Source: an uncultured Candidatus Saccharibacteria bacterium (GTDB lineage Bacteria; Patescibacteriota; Minisyncoccia; SW-4-49-11). From it: a stretch of 64,000 nt of DNA. Both the position numbers and the translations under genes were made by a program. The notes below the pieces were generated by a model. It saw only the letters and a list, made by a program, of their open reading frames with translations. It searched no databases and was not told the origin of the DNA. The stretch is from positions 14,037 to 78,036 of the forward strand of contig CAZPCB010000001.1 of the NCBI GenBank assembly GCA_964585065.1, given 5' to 3'. How positions within the stretch are numbered: the first letter of the stretch is position 1; the number at the start of each line of letters is the position of its first letter. Positions 2,901 through 57,850 of this stretch are shown here, piece by piece.

Positions 2901-2948
2901 AAACTATAGCATAAAATAGCAGTTTTGTCAATTTCTGATATTATTTTT

Positions 2949-3210
2949 CCACCCCTCAAGAGGGGAATTAGCTCAGTCCACACCCGTCGACTTCGTCGAC
3001 ACCCTCGCCGGCGAGGGAAAGTTTTATTGTCCTCCTTTGGAGGAGGTGGCCGCTAGGCCGGAGGTGGATAGAGTTTGAGTTTGTATTTTATCCACCCCGT
3101 CCAGCAAAGCTTGCCACCCCTCAAGAGGGGAATATATACAATGTACTGTCCTAAAAATTCCCCTCTTGAGGGGTGGATGTCTTTAGACAGACGGGGTGGA
3201 AAGTATTACA
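2949..3210. repeat. composite GC-rich palindromic repeat cluster (modules 1, 2 and 3; see findings)
   Basis: Seen directly in the sequence. 'ccacccctcaagaggggaat' occurs at 2949-2969 and 3114-3133, with its inverted copy 'attcccctcttgaggggtgg' at 3167-3186. The outer inverted repeat is 'tccaccccgtc' (3091-3101) with 'gacggggtgga' (3200-3210). 'ccctcgccggcgaggg' lies at 3002-3017. The 'tgtcctcctttggaggaggtggccgctaggccggaggtgga' element lies at 3028-3068. All are GC-rich hairpins in an AT-rich intergenic region. Confidence 0.7.
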
Positions 3211-4171
3211 ATAATTCTCTATTCACAAAATACACCCCTGCATATCCATTGGCAAAGCTATCAGCAGTAATAGTATTTTTCCCCTCTACAGTTAATTCTT
3301 TAACCGCAATATTACCTATTTTTGTCCCAATAATCAGATTGTGATTGACAGAATCCAATTGCCAATATCCTGGCTTTAGCTTAATATCAGATATATGCTC
3401 AAGATCTAATCTATCGAATACAATCTTTTTGTCTGTATTGAGATATGTATATATTTGAGGCCAAATAGTATAAGCTCTATAGGCATTCATAATATCCTCG
3501 GCTGATTGACTCTCCCAATCAATAAGCCCATCTATTTTTTGAACCATTTTCACAAAACTAGCTTTAGCATCATCTTGAACCCAGGTAGTAATTTCTCCAT
3601 TCATAAAAGGAATGAGATTTTCTCTCAGTATATCAGCAGCAACAGTGATAACTTTTGCCTCAAGTTCAATATAGGTATCAGTAGGGGATATAGTTATTTC
3701 TTCCTGAGCAATAATAGGTCCATGATCCATCAAATGATCAATTTCCATCAAACTAACAGCGGTACTCTTGTCCCCATTACGGAGGCTCGCCTGTATAGGA
3801 GATGGTCCACGATATTGAGGTAATCTAGAAGGATGAATATTCAACACCCGATGAGGCATAATATCTAAGATAGCCTGCGGAATAATTTTGCCATAGGCAA
3901 TTATTAGCCAAATATCAGCAGATAATGTACGCAATAATTCACTAGTCTCAGGAGTTTTGAGAGAAATAGGACTATACACGGGAATAGAATTACTTTCCCC
4001 AAATACTTTGAGGGGACTAGGAGTTAAAATTCTTTTACGCCCCTGCGGAGTATCAGGAGTAGTAATAATAGCCACAATATTAGCCCAATCGAGTAGGGAC
4101 TCAGCAATAGCAACCGTAAGCTGTGGAGTACCCCAAACTACAATACGGGGTTTAGACATACACTTTCCCAC
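3206..4171 (-). CDS. fmt: methionyl-tRNA formyltransferase
   Basis: N-terminal 'RIVVWGTPQLTVAIAESLL' and 'HPSRLPQYRGPSPIQASL' (formyltransferase core). Overlaps def on the same strand (def-fmt operon). The alternative start MSKPRIV is at 4159. Confidence 0.85.
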   Translation of the reverse strand: MGKCMSKPRIVVWGTPQLTVAIAESLLDWANIVAIITTPDTPQGRKRILTPSPLKVFGESNSIPVYSPISLKTPETSELLRTLSADIWLIIAYGKIIPQAILDIMPHRVLNIHPSRLPQYRGPSPIQASLRNGDKSTAVSLMEIDHLMDHGPIIAQEEITISPTDTYIELEAKVITVAADILRENLIPFMNGEITTWVQDDAKASFVKMVQKIDGLIDWESQSAEDIMNAYRAYTIWPQIYTYLNTDKKIVFDRLDLEHISDIKLKPGYWQLDSVNHNLIIGTKIGNIAVKELTVEGKNTITADSFANGYAGVYFVNRELL

Positions 4172-7252: not shown

Positions 7253-7286
7253 TTTAGTCCTATCTACTGTATTTAGCTAGAGAATA

Positions 7287-7326
7287 TGTCCTCCCTTGGG
7301 GGAGGTGCCCGTAGGGTGGAGGAGGA
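7287..7326. repeat. GC-rich palindromic repeat, module 3 copy ('tgtcctcccttgggggaggtgcccgtagggtggaggagga')
   Basis: About 85% identical to 3028-3068 and to the reverse complement of 47745-47785. Lies just upstream of the metG start. Confidence 0.7.
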
Positions 7327-17547: not shown

Positions 17548-18195
17548 ATGAAATTTATTTTATCGACAAGTTTAGCAATTTTATTTGTAATAGGATTTAT
17601 GGGGAATACCTATAATGTCTTTGCTGCTTGTGGGACTGGTCCAGATTGTGCCTCAGGACAGGTATGTGTAACAGTAGATGGTGCTACAAAATGTTTAAAA
17701 AATGAGGCGAATAGTAGTGGTGTTTGTGCGGGGGACTCTTCTATTAAATGTGGATCTGGACAGGCATGTATTCAAAATAAAGCAAAGGAGATTGTATGTG
17801 CTCCTGTACCTAAAGCTAATACATTACAGCCAGCAGCAGATAATACAAAAAATCCAGATAGTGCAGCTAATGGAGGAGGTAACACTTCTGGGGGAGGGGG
17901 ATTATTAGAGGGACTCAATGCTTTTGGTAGTGCAGATTCTGGACTTAATACAGAGGGAACTCTCATTGGGTTTATTGCTAATATTATTCGCTGGATATTA
18001 GGATTACTTGGAACAGTATTCTTTGTAATCATAGTTTTACAAGGGTATCTTTATATGACATCTTCAGGAGATGCGAGTAAAACAGCAGCAGCTACGGGGG
18101 CTATTACTAATGCAGTAATAGGACTACTGATTATTATGGGAGCTTTCCTCATTACTAATTTTGTAACAAGTGCTTTGATTGCCGCGGGCCCTTAA
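17548..18195 (+). CDS. TrbC/VirB2-like pilin-family protein with N-terminal Cys-rich module
   Basis: Signal peptide; 'CGTGPDCASGQVCV...CGSGQACIQ' module; Gly-rich linker. Hydrophobic hairpin 'IIRWILGLLGTVFFVIIVLQGYLYMTSSGDASK...AITNAVIGLLIIMGAFLITNFV'. Confidence 0.55.
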   Translation: MKFILSTSLAILFVIGFMGNTYNVFAACGTGPDCASGQVCVTVDGATKCLKNEANSSGVCAGDSSIKCGSGQACIQNKAKEIVCAPVPKANTLQPAADNTKNPDSAANGGGNTSGGGGLLEGLNAFGSADSGLNTEGTLIGFIANIIRWILGLLGTVFFVIIVLQGYLYMTSSGDASKTAAATGAITNAVIGLLIIMGAFLITNFVTSALIAAGP

Positions 18196-18205
18196 TATCT
18201 CATAT

Positions 18206-18553
18206 ATGATAGAAAAATTTATATCTTATTTCATAATAGCAACAGCGAAAGCCCAGGAGACATCGCCTCCTCCTATATTAGCTATACCTACAGGAACAGG
18301 AGTGGGGGAGCAAGGAGATCTGTTTACTTTTGTGTCAGCTATTGTGCAATGGGGATTGGGATTAATAGGGATAGTATTATTTGTACTTATACTCTTTTCT
18401 GGATTCCAATATGCAACAGCAGGGGGCGACTCTAAAAAAACTGAAGAAGCTATTAGTAGAATTACTTCTGCAGTAATCGGAGTATTCATTGTAGGGGTGG
18501 CTTTTATACTATCCAATGCAGTATTAGGATTTGTTTTTAGTCTAGGATCTTAA
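18206..18553 (+). CDS. TrbC/VirB2-like pilin-family protein (small)
   Basis: 'IVQWGLGLIGIVLFVLILFSGFQYATAGGDSKKTEEAISRITSAVIGVFIVGVAFILSNAV' is the two-helix hairpin with a charged loop. ATG at 18206. Confidence 0.5.
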   Translation: MIEKFISYFIIATAKAQETSPPPILAIPTGTGVGEQGDLFTFVSAIVQWGLGLIGIVLFVLILFSGFQYATAGGDSKKTEEAISRITSAVIGVFIVGVAFILSNAVLGFVFSLGS

Positions 18554-18653
18554 TATACTGACTTATCCACAATAGTATCACTTGCATAGTAATATAAGAT
18601 ATGATAGTATAAAAACATAGAACATATTATTCAATAATTATTAAGATATTCTT

Positions 18654-19037
18654 ATGAATACTTCCCAGATAAAATCAATAGCAACAAGAGCATTATTACC
18701 TGTATTAGTATTAGCTCCTACTTTAGCTGGAGCTGCAACTCCCGTAAAAGATACTAGAGTCATAGGTGAAATACCTCAAGTAGCTGGTACTAATCAATCT
18801 ACTGACCTTGTGGCTACAGTACAAGTGGTTATTCAATGGGCATTAGGATTTATCGGAATTGTAATATTCATTATTTTCTTATTTGCAGGATTTGAATATG
18901 CAACAGCAGGAGGAGATGAAGGAAAAGCAAAAACTGCACAATCTCGAATGATTAACGCGGTAATTGGATTAATTATTATATTCTTTGCCTTTGTAGCTTC
19001 AAATGCAATATTGTCATTCGTATTCCCAGGAAATTAA
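18654..19037 (+). CDS. TrbC/VirB2-like pilin-family protein (small)
   Basis: Signal peptide, then 'VIQWALGFIGIVIFIIFLFAGFEYATAGGDEGKAKTAQSRMINAVIGLIIIFFAFVASNAIL'. Confidence 0.55.
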   Translation: MNTSQIKSIATRALLPVLVLAPTLAGAATPVKDTRVIGEIPQVAGTNQSTDLVATVQVVIQWALGFIGIVIFIIFLFAGFEYATAGGDEGKAKTAQSRMINAVIGLIIIFFAFVASNAILSFVFPGN

Positions 19038-19060
19038 TCAAATTGATAGATACTATGAAA

Positions 19061-19091
19061 CAATAAAAAGGGATATAATCCCTTTTTATTG
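19061..19091 (+). terminator. rho-independent terminator-like hairpin ('caataaaaagggatataatccctttttattg')
   Basis: Perfect 8-bp GC-containing stem with flanking A/T runs, directly after the 18654 gene. Confidence 0.55.
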
Positions 19092-19181
19092 TTTAGAGAA
19101 TACATATTCAAATAATATAGTATTCTTGTCAGATAATAGAATACTTGATATACTTGTAATATATAGAATAGTAAAATAGAT

Positions 19182-19595
19182 ATGAGAGTCTTATTGATTA
19201 TAATAGCTTTATTAATAGGGGGATTTGTATTAAGTTCAAGTATTTCCTTGGCTCAAAGAGCCCCTGATGCTACTCTCCCTGATCCAGGAACAATCCCTAT
19301 TAATACAGGTATATCTGAGGGACCGACCCTCATAGAGACAGTATCTCTTATTATAAGATGGATATTAGGATTTATTGGTATTATAGTATTTGTGATTTTC
19401 TTATTTGCAGGATTTGAATATGCAACAGCAGGAGGAGATCAGAGTAAAGCAGAAAATGCTAGTAAAAGAATGGTAAATGCAATTATAGGACTTATTATTA
19501 TATTCTTTGCCTTTGTAGCATCCAATGCTGTATTGGAATTTGTATTCCCTCCAGATACTACTGCCAATATTAATACCTTATTTAATAGCAATTAA
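19182..19595 (+). CDS. TrbC/VirB2-like pilin-family protein (small)
   Basis: 'IIRWILGFIGIIVFVIFLFAGFEYATAGGDQSKAENASKRMVNAIIGLIIIFFAFVASNAVL'. About 80% identical in the hairpin region to the 18654 product. Confidence 0.55.
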   Translation: MRVLLIIIALLIGGFVLSSSISLAQRAPDATLPDPGTIPINTGISEGPTLIETVSLIIRWILGFIGIIVFVIFLFAGFEYATAGGDQSKAENASKRMVNAIIGLIIIFFAFVASNAVLEFVFPPDTTANINTLFNSN

Positions 19596-19596
19596 T

Positions 19597-20487
19597 ATGA
19601 AATATATTATCTTTTCACTTTTATTAGGTATAGGATTAATAATCCCTCAGAATAGCTTTGCTCAGACAGCTGCTCAAAATACAGCTTGCTCAGGTAAAAA
19701 AAATGGAGATGCATGTACCTATCAAAGAACAGTAACTACTGGAGGAAAAAATACTCCCAGAGGAACTGCAACGCAGACTGAAAGTGGTTTTTGTGATAGG
19801 ACCAATGCAGATAGTATAGCAAAAAATAATCCATTGACTTGTAAAACACTTGATTCTGAGAAGAATGGATGGGAAGATTGTGTTATCATTGGAGATGCTT
19901 GTAAATCTGGTAGCGAATTAGGTGTATGTAGAGCTCCAGGGCCTAAAACAGGACCATGTGACATTAGTAAAAAACCACCAGGTAGTCCGGGGGGAATATC
20001 TCCAGCAAAATGTGGCACATCAACATGTACAGGTGGACAAGTATGTGTGCAGCAAGGTGGAAGCCCAGTTTGTACTAATGATTTAACAAAAAATGGAAAA
20101 TGTGGCACATCAACATGTACAGGTGGGCAAGTATGTGTACAGCAAGGAGGAAGTCCAGTTTGTACTAATGATGCTGCTACACCAAGTACATCAACTAATA
20201 ATGGAACTACTACAGATGCATCATCCCCCCAAAGTGTAGGATTTGTGAACCCTATAAGGTTTAACTCTATTCCTGAGCTTATCGCAGGTATTATTAATGC
20301 CTTATTAGGTATATTAGGAGCGATTACTGTGGCTATTCTAGTTATGTCAGGATTTAAATATATGACAAGTTCTAATCCAGGAGAAGTAGGGCAGGCTTTG
20401 GATGGAATTAGGAATGCAGTTGTGGGACTTATGATAATTATGGGGGCTTTCCTCATAACACAATATATTATCTCGGCTTTGGTTTAA
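19597..20487 (+). CDS. TrbC/VirB2-like pilin-family protein with Cys-rich tandem-repeat N-domain
   Basis: Signal peptide 'MKYIIFSLLLGIGLIIPQNSFA'. 30-aa tandem repeat 'KCGTSTCTGGQVCVQQGGSPVCTND' x2. C-terminal hairpin 'LIAGIINALLGILGAITVAILVMSGFKYMTSSNPGEVGQALDGIRNAVVGLMIIMGAFLITQYII'. ATG at 19597, not the track's 19525. Confidence 0.55.
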   Translation: MKYIIFSLLLGIGLIIPQNSFAQTAAQNTACSGKKNGDACTYQRTVTTGGKNTPRGTATQTESGFCDRTNADSIAKNNPLTCKTLDSEKNGWEDCVIIGDACKSGSELGVCRAPGPKTGPCDISKKPPGSPGGISPAKCGTSTCTGGQVCVQQGGSPVCTNDLTKNGKCGTSTCTGGQVCVQQGGSPVCTNDAATPSTSTNNGTTTDASSPQSVGFVNPIRFNSIPELIAGIINALLGILGAITVAILVMSGFKYMTSSNPGEVGQALDGIRNAVVGLMIIMGAFLITQYIISALV

Positions 20488-20561: not shown

Positions 20562-21329
20562 TTACTCTCCCAGTCGGATGACAGGCCATTCAGACTGTCC
20601 TCCTGGTTGGGTGTTCCAGTAAGCATATATTCCTTTAACTTTTTCGGGTGCACCGTAGTCTTGTTCAGAGAAAAAATCGACTTGTAGATTTCCCTCCAAC
20701 TCTTCTTTTAAGGGGAAACATTTGGTTCCAAGTGTTGAGAAGGACTCTCCATTTAGGGTTAATTCCTGAGGGACTCGTGTGGAGCCATCAACTAGTCCTA
20801 GATGGGTGAAGCAAAGAGATTTCCGCCCTTTAGGTACTGAGTAATTTCCATCACCAGTGAGGGTGATTTTCTTACCAGATACCACAACTCTTTCAGTGGA
20901 AGGAGGAGGCTCCTCAACTGGTGGAGCTACCTGCTCGATTGGAGCAGGAGGGTTCAGCTGTGCTTCCCGAATTTGCTTCACTCCGGGGTTGAGTCCGGGG
21001 ATAAAGAAATTCAAGAGAGCGACACCCATCACCAACTTCGATAGGGGTTTGTTACCCCCAGTAAAATGCGATACTCCAGCTCCAATCAAGATTGCGATGA
21101 TCTCGAGAGGGAGTAGAGCTCCTCCAAAGAGAAGCATCCGAGCGAGAAGCCATCCCCCACTTACTCCGAGGAGTAAGTGGGGAAAGGTCCCAGAAGGGAG
21201 GCTCACTCCTTTCCCTTTCCCTGCCGGAGCAGGGGAGGAGGGTGAAGATGTTTTTGAAGAATTACTACTTGAGGTAGTGCTGGATGATGGGTTGGATTGA
21301 TTGTTAAGGCTATAGCGACGATTTGCCAT
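20562..21329 (-). CDS. membrane protein with Ser-rich N-terminus, 2 TM helices and a C-terminal soluble domain (possibly NfeD-like partner of the adjacent SPFH gene); lies in a high-GC island
   Basis: N-terminus 'SNPSSSTTSSSNSSKTSSPSSPAPAGKG', TM segments 'LLLGVSGGWLLARMLLFGGALLPLEIIAILIGAGV', and about 150 aa of soluble C-terminus. Local GC is about 50% against about 33% for the flanking DNA. Start chosen at MANRRY. Confidence 0.45.
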   Translation of the reverse strand: MANRRYSLNNQSNPSSSTTSSSNSSKTSSPSSPAPAGKGKGVSLPSGTFPHLLLGVSGGWLLARMLLFGGALLPLEIIAILIGAGVSHFTGGNKPLSKLVMGVALLNFFIPGLNPGVKQIREAQLNPPAPIEQVAPPVEEPPPSTERVVVSGKKITLTGDGNYSVPKGRKSLCFTHLGLVDGSTRVPQELTLNGESFSTLGTKCFPLKEELEGNLQVDFFSEQDYGAPEKVKGIYAYWNTQPGGQSEWPVIRLGE

Positions 21330-21414
21330 AGTGCCTCGATGAAAAGAACATAATATATATAGCATATTTTAGGTAAAATGTCAATATTTATAGACATAAA
21401 CAATAAAGAAAAAA

Positions 21415-30272: not shown

Positions 30273-30358
30273 GGAGAGTTCGCATAGTTGGTCTAGTGCG
30301 CACGCTTGGAAAGCGTGTATACCGAAAGGTATCAAGAGTTCGAATCTCTTACTCTCCG
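30273..30358 (+). tRNA. tRNA-Ser (anticodon GGA)
   Basis: Manual fold. Acceptor GGAGAGT/ACTCTCC. Anticodon stem CACGC/GCGTG with loop TTGGAAA (GGA). Long variable arm 'tataccgaaaggtat'. T-arm AAGAG-TTCGAAT-CTCTT. Discriminator G. Confidence 0.85.
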
Positions 30359-30521
30359 CAAAATCCCCCCCAGCCCCGTCTCGGACACCTACGGTTTCCG
30401 ACACTCGGGAATAAATCCCTCGCTGCCTTCCTGCACGGGGGATTTTGCCTTCATACATACGATGTATGAAATCCTGAAGGAAGTTTTATAGATTCGAACT
30501 CGGGAAGGGTATATGGTTTTT

Positions 30522-30595
30522 TGTCTCCCTTTGGAGGCTTTCGTCCCTCCTATATTTATTTAGGAGGGGGAGTACCCGTAGGGTGAGGGTTTCAA
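30522..30595. repeat. GC-rich palindromic repeat, module 3-related copy ('tgtctccctttggagg...gagtacccgtagggtgaggg')
   Basis: Shares 'tgtcYtccYtttggagg' and 'cccgtagggtg' with the 7287 and 3028 copies but carries an internal insertion ('ctttcgtccctcctatatttatttaggaggggg' hairpin). Confidence 0.5.
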
Positions 30596-30764
30596 GGAGC
30601 AAATCCCATTTGCGACGAGTTCGGAATCTCTCTCCGTATGAGTATTCTCAAAAACTTCATAATTAGTTTAGTATATATACTGGCGTGAAGAGAATGAAAA
30701 GTATATAATATATAGAGATTTAATAAGCTAAGAAAGTAGAAGAGGTACCGTTAAAACAGTAATT

Positions 30765-36926: not shown

Positions 36927-37238
36927 TCAAGCTGCTAATGTGAGAATTTTCTCCTCAAGTCGAGGGAAAAGGAGTTCAAGTTTATTACGTTCTCGAATTT
37001 CTTTACAGTTATAAATAACCCGACCATACCTATTTGTAGGTATTAATTTTGCCTCTACTTCTGTGTGACAATCTGCACAGAATGGGATTAGGTTCTCAAA
37101 ACTGTCATCTCTGCCCTCCCTCTGGGGGATAATATGATGAACTTGAAGTTTGCTTGGATGAAATTGTTCGAAACAGTGTTGGCATGTGTGATCATGCAGC
37201 TCCTTTACTTCGGCCCTAATACTAGTGTATTGGCACAT
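36927..37238 (-). CDS. HNH endonuclease (stand-alone, small)
   Basis: 'CQHCFEQFHPSKLQVHHIIPQREGRDDSFENLIPFCADCHTEVE' contains the canonical HNH Cys4 plus His-His arrangement. Confidence 0.7.
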   Translation of the reverse strand: MCQYTSIRAEVKELHDHTCQHCFEQFHPSKLQVHHIIPQREGRDDSFENLIPFCADCHTEVEAKLIPTNRYGRVIYNCKEIRERNKLELLFPRLEEKILTLAA

Positions 37239-47469: not shown

Positions 47470-47609
47470 CAGATAGAAGGAATATGTCAGTGACATATTC
47501 CTATAGGGGTGAGAAAGTCGGAGCCTGGTGTGAGTTTCCCTGAAAGGGAAGGCGAACACGGCGAGACGGGGTCGCGAGAATTTACCGTCAGGGAAATTAC
47601 TTGTGACCG

Positions 47610-47632
47610 AACCCCTGCGGGAGCACAAGATA
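47610..47632 (+). repeat. direct repeat of the tRNA-Arg 3' end ('cgaacccctgcgggagcaca'), att-like
   Basis: An exact 20-nt copy of tRNA-Arg positions 47450-47472 recurs 160 bp downstream. Confidence 0.7.
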
Positions 47633-47699: not shown

Positions 47700-47785
47700 C
47701 CCTCGCTGGCGAGGGAGGAACACATAGTGGTGGGTATGGATTTCTTTGTCATAGTCCTCCTCCGACCTGACGGCCACCTCCCCCA
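47700..47785. repeat. GC-rich palindromic repeats: module 2 ('ccctcgctggcgaggg', 47700-47715) and inverted module 3 (47745-47785)
   Basis: 47745-47785 is the reverse complement of the 7287-7326 element at about 85% identity. Module 2 matches 3002-3017. Confidence 0.7.
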
Positions 47786-47817
47786 AGGGAGGACAATAAG
47801 GAGGTGTATCTATATAT

Positions 47818-56676: not shown

Positions 56677-56786
56677 TCCACCCCACCCCATGGGCACCCC
56701 TCAAGAGGGGAATTTTTCGTACAGGACATTGGTATATATTCCCCTCTTGAGGGGTGGTCACTCTCATACTTTTGTATGGGAGTGGA
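56677..56786. repeat. GC-rich long inverted-repeat element (module 1 pair plus outer arms), second copy of the 3091-3210 element in opposite orientation
   Basis: 'cacccctcaagaggggaat' at 56695-56713, 'attcccctcttgaggggtgg' at 56738-56757. Outer arms 'tccaccccacccca' and 'gacggggtgga'. The spacer is the reverse complement of the 3134-3166 spacer. Confidence 0.7.
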
Positions 56787-56867
56787 CGGGGTGGATAGAA
56801 AAGCGAGGTATATATTATTGACATCAAAACATATATTTGATACTATTAGATAGTAGTTATACATAAA

Positions 56868-56965: not shown

Positions 56966-57850
56966 ATGAGATATAAATATATACCATTATCTATAACTTT
57001 ACTTATAGTATCTTATTTTATATTTGCTACAAATACTTTTGCTCAAGTGACTTATCAGTCCTATACTAATTTTCCGGGAGTGGGTAGAATAGGTGATTTG
57101 TGTCAACTGATTACTGCTCTTTGGTATCTTGGATTTGCAACTCTCTTTACTGCGGTACTCGGTATGTTTATATATGGGGGGTATATGTATGTGACAGCTG
57201 GAGTGAATGCTGGGAAAGTTAATCAAGCTAAGGAAATATTTACTAATACCATTACTGGACTCATTATAGGACTTTCTATATTTATTATTATTAATGTTAT
57301 TAACCCAGGATTATTGCAAGGGAATTGTAGTATTTCTTCTCCAGGATCGGCTGGGAGTAATTCTACTTTAGGAGCAGATAGTGGGGCACCTGTTGCGGGG
57401 AATGGTTCAGCTTCATTATTAGAAGTTGCTCGCAGAGATAGTGGTGGTAAAAAGCCTGATGGACGTTGTTATACACATGTAGCAAAATATATTAATCAAG
57501 CTGGATTTTGTGGTATTCCTAAAAATGGATTTGATAGTAAAATACCCTCTGCATATTGGCCAGAGGCAAGACAATTTGGAGAATATTTAAATCAAGGGAA
57601 TAATGCATCAAATCTTGGTATTGTGAAATTACCAACGGATAATCCATATAGAGCACCTGCTGGGTCAATTGTAGTTGTAAGAGCAGATAGACCCGGCTGT
57701 GAGGGTAGTCTCTGTCACCCTACTGCTGGTGATATAGCCGTTGCTGATGGACAGGGTTCATTTTATAATGGAGGAGAAATGGGCTATGGAGGGTCACAAA
57801 ATTATCCACCAGGGAATAATTATGTTATAGGAATATATGCTTGTAAATAA
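56966..57850 (+). CDS. TrbC/VirB2-like pilin-family N-domain fused to a C-terminal Cys/His peptidase-like (CHAP- or NlpC/P60-like) cell-wall hydrolase domain
   Basis: Signal peptide, then 'LITALWYLGFATLFTAVLGMFIYGGYMYVTAGVNAGKVNQAKEIFTNTITGLIIGLSIFIIINVI' (two-helix pilin hairpin). C-terminal about 170 aa with 'DGRCYTHVAKYINQAG' (candidate nucleophile Cys) and 'GSLCHPTAGDIAVADG' (candidate His). Confidence 0.5.
   Translation: MRYKYIPLSITLLIVSYFIFATNTFAQVTYQSYTNFPGVGRIGDLCQLITALWYLGFATLFTAVLGMFIYGGYMYVTAGVNAGKVNQAKEIFTNTITGLIIGLSIFIIINVINPGLLQGNCSISSPGSAGSNSTLGADSGAPVAGNGSASLLEVARRDSGGKKPDGRCYTHVAKYINQAGFCGIPKNGFDSKIPSAYWPEARQFGEYLNQGNNASNLGIVKLPTDNPYRAPAGSIVVVRADRPGCEGSLCHPTAGDIAVADGQGSFYNGGEMGYGGSQNYPPGNNYVIGIYACK

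Follow-up and report, generated by a model that had tools for sequence, protein, structure and literature searches.

The window analysed here, a 64,000 nt stretch of contig CAZPCB010000001.1 from an uncultured Candidatus Saccharibacteria bacterium, has a GC percentage of about 35 and a positive GC skew along most of its length. It contains housekeeping genes typical of Patescibacteria, i.e. fmt, def, priA, greA, metG, gatB, gyrA, rpoB, rpoC and secA, as well as genes encoding type IV secretion pilin-like proteins, and the nearest relatives among those retrieved carry the labels Candidatus Paceibacteria or Paceibacterota. Almost all GC-rich islands of the window coincide with short palindromic repeats, in which an initial annotation had recognised three separate modules. 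Judged from their sequences, modules 1–3 are variants of one DNA repeat with two hairpins, of which three types, units A, B and C, are distinguished below.

The unit reads 5′-(A)TCCAC(C)CCG-[hp2]-CACCC-[HP1]-AAT-3′, where hp2 is a variable palindrome and HP1 a conserved GC hairpin, and it is about 37–47 nt long, or more where hp2 is long. In unit A the order is (A)TCCACCCCG, a short copy-specific palindrome (hp2), and then the 19-mer CACCCCTCAAGAGGGGAAT, within which the core CCCCTCAAGAGGGG forms HP1. Read by eye, all three types show a similarity between their 5′ box and the 5′ arm of their HP1: CCACCCC/CCACCCC in unit A, CACACCC/CACCC in unit B, and CCACCTCC/CCACCTCC in unit C. A covariance model (R1) was built on 87 distinct unit copies and then run on the window, where it matched four full A units and a truncated copy at 2949. 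The same model, built from unit A, also detected units B and C in the window (Table 1) and the left arm of a related element in Nomurabacteria with about 35 bits, so the three modules merge into a single double-hairpin unit. A repeat-pair search independently recovered the same module pairs.

Most positions given in the initial annotation were reproduced, with chance expectations taken from dinucleotide-preserving shuffles. Module 1 (CCACCCCTCAAGAGGGGAAT) was found on the + strand at 2949, 3114 and 56694 and on the − strand at 3157 and 56738, which makes five matches with 0.00 expected (100 shuffles, at most three mismatches). Module 2, located at 3002–3017 and 47700–47715 (0.01 expected), is at the former position the HP1 of unit B, and module 3 was found on the + strand at 3028–3048 and 7287–7307 and on the − strand at 47775–47795 (0.00 expected). 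The inverted copy of module 3 exists as described, but its full extent is 47755–47799, about 10 nt off the earlier 47745–47785. Likewise, the variant recognised at 30522–30595 is a C-like unit but is broken by a nested hairpin, according to a reading by eye and to short BLAST matches to mosaics in the retrieved loci L021, L030, L082 and L011. The long hairpins proposed earlier are genuine, lying at 3091–3200 and 56677–56795, and their 23-nt spacers are mutually reverse-complementary save for 3 substitutions. The GC percentage of the modules, first put at 70–80, was measured as 55–71.

Since the units are joined both tail-to-tail (A, 23-nt spacer, inverted A; 3091–3200 and 56677–56795) and head-to-head (inverted C, AT-rich linker, A; 3024–3133), the region 2949–3200 is read as a five-unit mosaic. 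Part of it (A-TTAGCTCAG-B-linker-C′) was found again in two other genomes (L082 and L021), with which unit B aligns, and the position of the truncated unit A at 2949, whose R1 match spans model positions 9–42 only, holds a full unit A in both. On folding, the region 2940–3215 reached z = −8.7 (+ strand) and z = −9.3 (− strand), far better than shuffles. The C units at 3024–3068 and 47755–47799 form an inverted-repeat pair with 87% complementarity, and L091 has an ortholog of the unit at 56677–56713 with about 92% identity. Nomurabacteria carry a related left unit (N′), which is joined head-to-head to unit A to give an element of roughly 90–100 nt. Within mosaics the units alternate in orientation and their spacing is irregular. 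Dense mosaics of unit A with other short modules (e.g. TGCTGTAACGCCGTGC...GCGTGGCTGTTACACTACATT) and with no linked open reading frame (ORF) were also seen in a metagenome-assembled genome (MAG) labelled Thermotogaceae (L003, L004, L017, L035, L057, L074, L085, L101 and L110). In a closed Kapabacteria chromosome (L033, 2612–7068), paired units lie between tandem paralogous genes for proteins of ~630 amino acids (aa), with a period of ~2.1 kb.

Table 1. Repeat units, linkers and spacers located in the window, with the covariance model (R1) scores where obtained.
Feature	Position	Strand	Remarks
Truncated unit A	2949–2968	+	CCACCCC-HP1-AAT alone, 5′ TCCACCCCG-hp2 part absent; exact 20-mer
Linker TAGCTCAG, unit A to unit B	2969–2976	+	Kept as TTAGCTCAG in L082, L021, L043, L044, L108
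Unit B, TCCACACCCG-[GTCGAC TTC GTCGAC]-CACCCTCGCCGGCGAGGGAA	2977–3020	+	R1 17.6 bits, E = 2.4e-4, full model length
Unit C (module 3)	3024–3068	−	G-rich strand on window +; R1 3026–3068 (−), E = 0.019
AT-rich head-to-head linker TAGAGTTTGAGTTTGTATTTTA, unit C to unit A	3069–3090		Same linker between C-type unit and unit A in L091, L122
Full unit A, left half of tail-to-tail dimer	3091–3133	+	R1 60.8 bits, E = 2.8e-20
23-nt spacer of tail-to-tail dimer	3134–3156		Near-identical at 56714–56737 (flipped), L120, L122, L207, L209
Full unit A, right half of tail-to-tail dimer	3157–3200	−	R1 61.3 bits, E = 1.9e-20
Solo unit C between greA and metG	7284–7326	−	Pattern match; head-to-head partner absent
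Degenerate A-like unit downstream of tRNA-Ser	30369–30412	+	Weak R1 match (7.6 bits, E = 1.3) and reading by eye; low confidence
C-like unit split by nested hairpin (TCCCTCCTATATTTATTTAGGAGGGGGA)	30522–30595	−	Read by eye; low confidence
Solo HP1 hairpin, unit-B type (CCCTCGCTGGCGAGGGA)	47700–47716		Pattern match
Unit C upstream of rpoB	47755–47799	+	C-rich strand on window +; two inverted-repeat pairs, pattern match, weak whalefall-1 match
Unit A with decayed hp2, left half of second tail-to-tail dimer	56677–56713	+	R1 49.8 bits
Spacer of second dimer	56714–56737		Flipped relative to 3134–3156
Unit A with long (~30 nt) hp2 cassette, right half of second dimer	56738–56795	−	R1 50.8 bits

The hp2 stem covaries strongly: in the 87-sequence alignment, 152 cells were changed on both sides of the stem versus 58 ± 7 in shuffles, and control alignments with the 3′ partners slid by 1–3 columns gave 18–43 double-sided changes. 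At the central positions each of the four Watson-Crick pair types is represented, with hardly any G·U pairs. Stems of 2–7 bp, free in sequence, were present in 97 of 98 distinct sequences. Loops of 3 nt were the most common form (55/98), and 39 of these 55 read TNC on the C-rich strand, i.e. GNA on the G-rich strand. As the C(GNA)G mini-hairpin is exceptionally stable in DNA, this bias hints at, without proving, a single-stranded DNA form of the unit. The strings TTCG and TACG within hp2, considered as RNA-type tetraloops, belong instead to perfect palindromes with 3-nt loops.

Paralogous tail-to-tail dimers at three sites of the lineage share a nearly exact HP1-spacer-HP1′ centre, yet their hp2 cassettes are unalignable, and hp2 therefore changes far faster than the presumably neutral spacer. 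Candidate routes for such fast change are nested palindromic insertion and hairpin-templated repair. In some copies the loops of HP1 bear nested hairpins as well, and one HP1 has a flipped loop. The cassette might be usable for marking lineages: L002 and L115, both binned as Simkania, contain a unit whose hp2 cassette is shared with the Patescibacteria contig L100, which suggests mis-binning. More generally, a fast-changing palindrome between invariant boxes offers a handle on hairpin-driven mutation or insertion.

The repeats are widely spread outside the window. Matches to the unit-A 19-mer, from which the flanks were extracted for survey, were obtained at no fewer than 119 loci elsewhere, the majority in Patescibacteria, so that the family is not restricted to this stretch. 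Full units occur in the cultured Bacteroidota Pedobacter mendelii CCM 8685, Parasediminibacterium sp. JCM 36343 and Flavobacterium sp. RHBU_24, and in closed Kapabacteria and Flavobacterium chromosomes. Full units are present also in MAGs labelled Bacillota, Thermotogaceae, Ignavibacteriae, Nitrospirota, Limisphaerales, Desulfobulbaceae, Bdellovibrionales and Sulfurovum. Compared letter by letter, unit A appears almost unchanged across several bacterial phyla.

Among close relatives the repeats are gained, lost and rearranged quickly. Relatives were retrieved via the Fmt protein (87–95% identical) and four intergenic sites were compared; for the Fmt of the window itself, an exact-protein search gave no entry. 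The fmt-glycosyltransferase spacer was found in at least five states: empty in L120, L124 and L208; with the tail-to-tail dimer alone in L207; with a truncated dimer in L209; with the dimer and units C, B and A in the window; and with a dimer carrying a 62-nt insert and other modules in L122. The block by which the window exceeds L207 has a GGGGTGG at either end, which fits either insertion at this motif or deletion between direct repeats. In the greA-metG spacer two units lie head-to-head in L124 and L125, one lies in the window, and none is present in L120 and L122. Of the two remaining spacers, both empty in the window, gyrA-methyltransferase holds a dimer only in L120 and metG-gatB a 224-nt mosaic only in L122. 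No fresh insertions separated the members of the pairs L120/L121, L122/L123 and L124/L125, each of which is 100% identical.

Extra genes, mostly without a Pfam match, were observed in relatives between priA and def and between gatB and metG (L122 8487–9359; L124 8492–9361 and 2921–3976; L209 3974–8497), where the window has short spacers. These two sites are hot spots for gene gain and repeats alike.

In related Patescibacteria the units also enter genes; within the window no convincing in-gene copy was found. From 145 unit copies, on which the in-gene and orientation statistics are based, 15 lay inside long ORFs by a strict definition (at least 60 open codons on each side) and 28 by a loose one. 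Between them, the 15 strict copies occupy both orientations and four of the six possible frames, and therefore the DNA is conserved and not the peptide. The rsmA gene of L019 carries two in-frame, stop-free insertions (ISTPLPQAGAPLKRGM and SNSPLEEYPLGGGGQSFPPRPAATPQEGN), and further in-frame copies were found in purD (L024 and L025), pheT (L031 and L093) and trmD (L191). The predicted translation of the insert reads e.g. SPLEEYPLGGGG...TPQEGN in RsmA and PurD. The units thus survive in intergenic DNA and in tolerant in-frame positions of genes without a gene of their own. Intergenic solo units were oriented against the local GC skew in 34 versus 14 cases (p = 0.006, with copies that are not independent of each other), a bias that would fit a replication-linked, single-strand mechanism.

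Taken together, the units are probably non-autonomous, DNA-level repeats of the REP/BIME/RPE kind. The selfish-element interpretation of the initial annotation is thereby upheld on four grounds, i.e. filled and empty sites, alternating mosaics, in-frame copies within genes, and the lack of a linked gene. Clustering of ORFs of at least 120 aa from the surveyed unit-A loci yielded only syntenic housekeeping clusters, and no Pfam match to transposase or integrase families was obtained among the window ORFs tested. To spread, such repeats would need a trans-acting protein able to recognise the invariant C-rich boxes, probably while the DNA is single-stranded and folded. Many deletions and additions may be mediated by the short direct repeats CCACCCC/GGGGTGG, and nested palindromic insertions or template-switch repair would be concentrated in hp2 and the hairpin loops.

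Several observations weigh against this interpretation. An unambiguous target-site duplication was not found at the four filled/empty comparisons, and three of the four polymorphic sites lacked a clean insertion junction; the junctions usually hold extra AT-rich sequence. Active transposition is therefore inferred rather than seen, and some of the polymorphism could be due simply to recombination or deletion. The fetched loci yielded no mobilising enzyme. The strand clues conflict, in that the GNA loops lie on the G-rich strand and the skew bias places the C-rich strand on the G-skewed strand. The exactness of the 19-mer conservation is partly built in, the 19-mer having been the search pattern, and several of the cross-phylum MAG labels, e.g. 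those of the Simkania loci, are possibly mis-binned. Finally, the units may be beneficial to the host.

Other structured DNA was noted around the repeats. A structured element of ~135 nt lies 3′ of tRNA-Arg(TCG) (47471–47629), and behind it comes a 20-nt segment identical to the 3′ end of that tRNA. The same element was seen 3′ of tRNA-Glu (L067 3415–3583) and of tRNA-Leu (L056 4040–4270, reverse strand), each trailed by a copy of its own tRNA's 3′ end, with copies of 20–30 nt over the three tRNAs. This tRNA-tail element begins with a perfect 23-nt palindrome, its terminal hairpin retains G·U pairs in all three copies, and it had no Rfam match. The same pattern is shown by tRNA-Ser (30273–30359), of whose 3′ end a decayed copy lies at 30618–30640, past ~260 nt of GC-rich modules. 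Association of the units themselves with tRNA genes, as first proposed, did not hold in the wider sample: a tRNA is present at a distance of up to 400 nt from six of the 145 units, versus 2.6 for random positions.

Elsewhere in the window, a GC-rich hairpin (CCCTGCCGGAGCAGGG, 21212–21248) is located inside a Ser/Pro-rich low-complexity ORF without a Pfam match (20562–21365, −), and may be the remnant of a palindromic insert within the gene. In the region 17548–20487, paralogous genes for small membrane proteins follow one another and contain internal DNA repeats (families D1–D5 and D7), and a 90-nt tandem duplication at 20007–20172 encodes a Cys-rich repeat. The ORF at 56966–57850 has a weak T4SS_pilin Pfam match. 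A free-standing HNH endonuclease ORF of 103 aa (36927–37238, −) was the sole nuclease-like gene found in the window.

A bolder proposal, which we regard as unlikely, is that the units constitute an undescribed cross-phylum mobile element, in which two invariant C-rich boxes (CCACCCC ... CCACCCC) surround a palindromic cassette replaced or rewritten far faster than the adjacent neutral spacer, and which would be moved by a widely conserved host function or an unrecognised enzyme instead of RAYT or a classical transposase. One possibility under this proposal is that the cassette would be a tiny palindromic insertion with a 6–7 bp duplication of CCACCCC; alternatively, it would be regenerated by hairpin-templated synthesis at each move. 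The neighbouring tRNA-tail element may then share the same integration biology.

As in Pseudomonas and Escherichia coli, the units might be REPINs of a Y1 (HUH) transposase, RAYT or RayT, with a single-copy domesticated RayT cutting and moving the hairpins as single-stranded DNA. A tblastn search with IS200, IS608 and E. coli RAYT gave one weak match, in L093. Following it up revealed RayT-like genes, which are abundant and conserved in Patescibacteria (L093 5758–6492; L126–L205). Many of these genes carry a lineage-specific perfect palindrome three times, i.e. upstream, within the ORF just past the HUH motif, and after the stop codon; the copy within the ORF encodes a conserved HRSDLW, and the palindrome differs by lineage. 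The outer arms of many RayT palindromes, TTCCCC...GGGGAA, recall the ATTCCCC/GGGGAAT ends of the units, and the dimers, the DNA-type GNA loop bias and the orientation bias against GC skew would agree with such a mover. However, among 80 RayT loci only one has a unit A within 2.5 kb, inside an ORF read as trmD, and the palindrome flanking RayT there is unrelated (CTAGGCCTTGCCTAG). Among the 119 surveyed unit-A loci, in turn, there is one RayT gene, bearing a different palindrome, and the units lack the 5′ GTAG/GTGG tag. The RAYT partner suggested for these repeats was thus sought and found not to be linked to them, and the REPIN explanation is highly doubtful. Cross-mobilisation by RayT is conceivable because the outer arms are alike, and nothing in the present data supports it.

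Very unlikely, too, is an origin as miniature inverted-repeat transposable elements (MITEs) of an autonomous insertion sequence with the terminal inverted repeats ATTCYCCTCTTGAGG...CCTCAAGAGGGGAAT, moved by its transposase. Head-to-head dimers do end in imperfect terminal inverted repeats of ~20 nt, and a possible 8-bp AT-rich duplication (AAAATWAT) was read by eye around the dimer at the fmt site, but a duplication of this type was not reproduced at the other polymorphic sites. Nor does a simple inverted-repeat element account for the solo units and the tail-to-tail dimers. No transposase ORF was present between or beside units in ~0.9 Mb of fetched loci, and no parent insertion sequence with the same ends was found in these loci or matched in plasmid and phage collections. 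In L033, an insertion sequence was rejected, as the segments between inverted units encode the ~630-aa tandem paralogs, which are unlike transposases.

Action at the transcript level is most improbable. In this case the units would be small structured RNAs or cis-acting RNA signals, such as terminators, stabilisers, small regulatory RNAs or whalefall-1-like motifs. The very strong folding and the covariation within hp2 would suit an RNA, and HP1 followed by AAT, often with a T-run, resembles an intrinsic terminator. Yet the two strands fold equally well, and the near absence of G·U pairs from the hp2 stem speaks for DNA pairing instead. Between co-directional genes 24 copies were sense and 25 antisense, and 15 and 13 copies lay between convergent and divergent genes, respectively, so orientation is unbiased with respect to flanking genes. 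Copies within ORFs in both orientations, and sites filled or empty among close relatives, are at odds with a transcript function. Rfam searches at gathering threshold gave no family for the units, either in the window or in 108 kb of repeat-rich loci, and with the limit relaxed to E = 10 on each locus the output was confined to tRNAs, RNase P and chance-level matches. The structured-RNA option offered by the initial annotation is accordingly not sustained.

The only suggestive Rfam match is to whalefall-1 (RF01762), which its authors rated as certainly an RNA (PMC2864571), and which resembles the repeats in having a conserved C/G-rich hairpin, a variable hairpin and a G-rich tail. Unit C at 47754–47796 matched it weakly (18.2 bits, E = 0.008 in a 101-nt search), about half the gathering score of 37, and no other window unit matched. 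As a lead only, whalefall-1 itself may be a relative of this kind of repeat.

A phage or plasmid vector was rejected, with one match in 2.9 million viral contigs and no 19-mer match in the plasmid and phage collections, and so was a CRISPR or TIGR-type array, given the alternating orientation, the irregular spacing and the lack of such genes in the window.

As probable selfish repeats, the units bear on both genome biology and annotation practice. Patescibacteria genomes are tiny and streamlined, yet this lineage tolerates fast-turnover repeats even in rsmA, purD, pheT and trmD. Gene calling is affected by inflated or fused ORFs, e.g. metG of 517–536 aa versus 492 aa without the repeat, and assembly and binning by the occurrence of the same 19-mer on contigs labelled as several phyla, some labels being perhaps binning errors. 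For the question of how REP-like repeats spread without a dedicated transposase, the family offers cultured carriers (P. mendelii CCM 8685, JCM 36343 and RHBU_24).

With REP, BIME and REPIN sequences (E. coli BIMEs, Pseudomonas REPINs) the units share short GC-rich palindromes, inverted dimers foldable into one long hairpin, and mosaics of unit types in alternating orientation with specific linkers, and both are mainly intergenic, non-coding and strain-variable. The units differ in having no GTAG/GTGG tag, with CGTC (or CGCC/CGGC) 5′ of hp2 and CCAC 5′ of HP1 instead, and in having no RAYT gene flanked by units. Moreover, they comprise two hairpins, one of which is hypervariable even among paralogs of one lineage, and they recur as one and the same unit in several phyla, unlike the lineage-specific REPs.

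Rickettsia palindromic elements (RPE), reportedly described by Ogata et al. in 2000, are palindromic repeats found in frame in housekeeping genes, where they are read through as an extra peptide, and also between genes, in Rickettsia only. The units are similar in their in-frame, stop-free copies in genes and additional intergenic copies. They are not confined to Rickettsia, and differ in sequence family, as judged only by the peptides listed for RPE-4 and RPE-6.

The closest concept is the superfamily of CGTC-tagged REPs, which includes Neisseria dRS3 and Rickettsia RPE-4 and RPE-6 (Di Nocera, De Gregorio & Rocco 2013, PMC3733652). These REPs have a family-specific stem of 8–9 bp starting with AT and a loop of 4–5 nt, occur in several phyla including Bacteroidetes, Chlorobi and Thermotogae, and encode the peptides VIPAKAGI, DGRVKPGHD and others (PMC3733652). 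In the units CGTC (CCCCGTC) lies directly 5′ of hp2 in 54 of 87 copies and CCA (CCAC) 3′ in 66 of 87, and the lack of a dedicated transposase, the in-gene copies, the head-to-head dimers and the occurrence in several phyla are also alike. However, in the units the stem of the tagged hairpin is 2–7 bp long and unconstrained in sequence, its loop is mostly of 3 nt, another, conserved hairpin comes after it, and the encoded peptides are TPQEGN and APLKRG. Because stem, loop and peptides differ, the units were not filed as CGTC-tagged REPs. In agreement with the initial annotation, which knew of no described family, a full-text search for the HP1 core found no paper, and the nearest concept, the CGTC-tagged REPs, differs in sequence and hairpin geometry. 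The repeats are a real family and, as far as these comparisons reach, a new one of the REP/BIME/RPE kind, distinguished by a two-hairpin unit with a hypervariable cassette and by near-identical recurrence across phyla.

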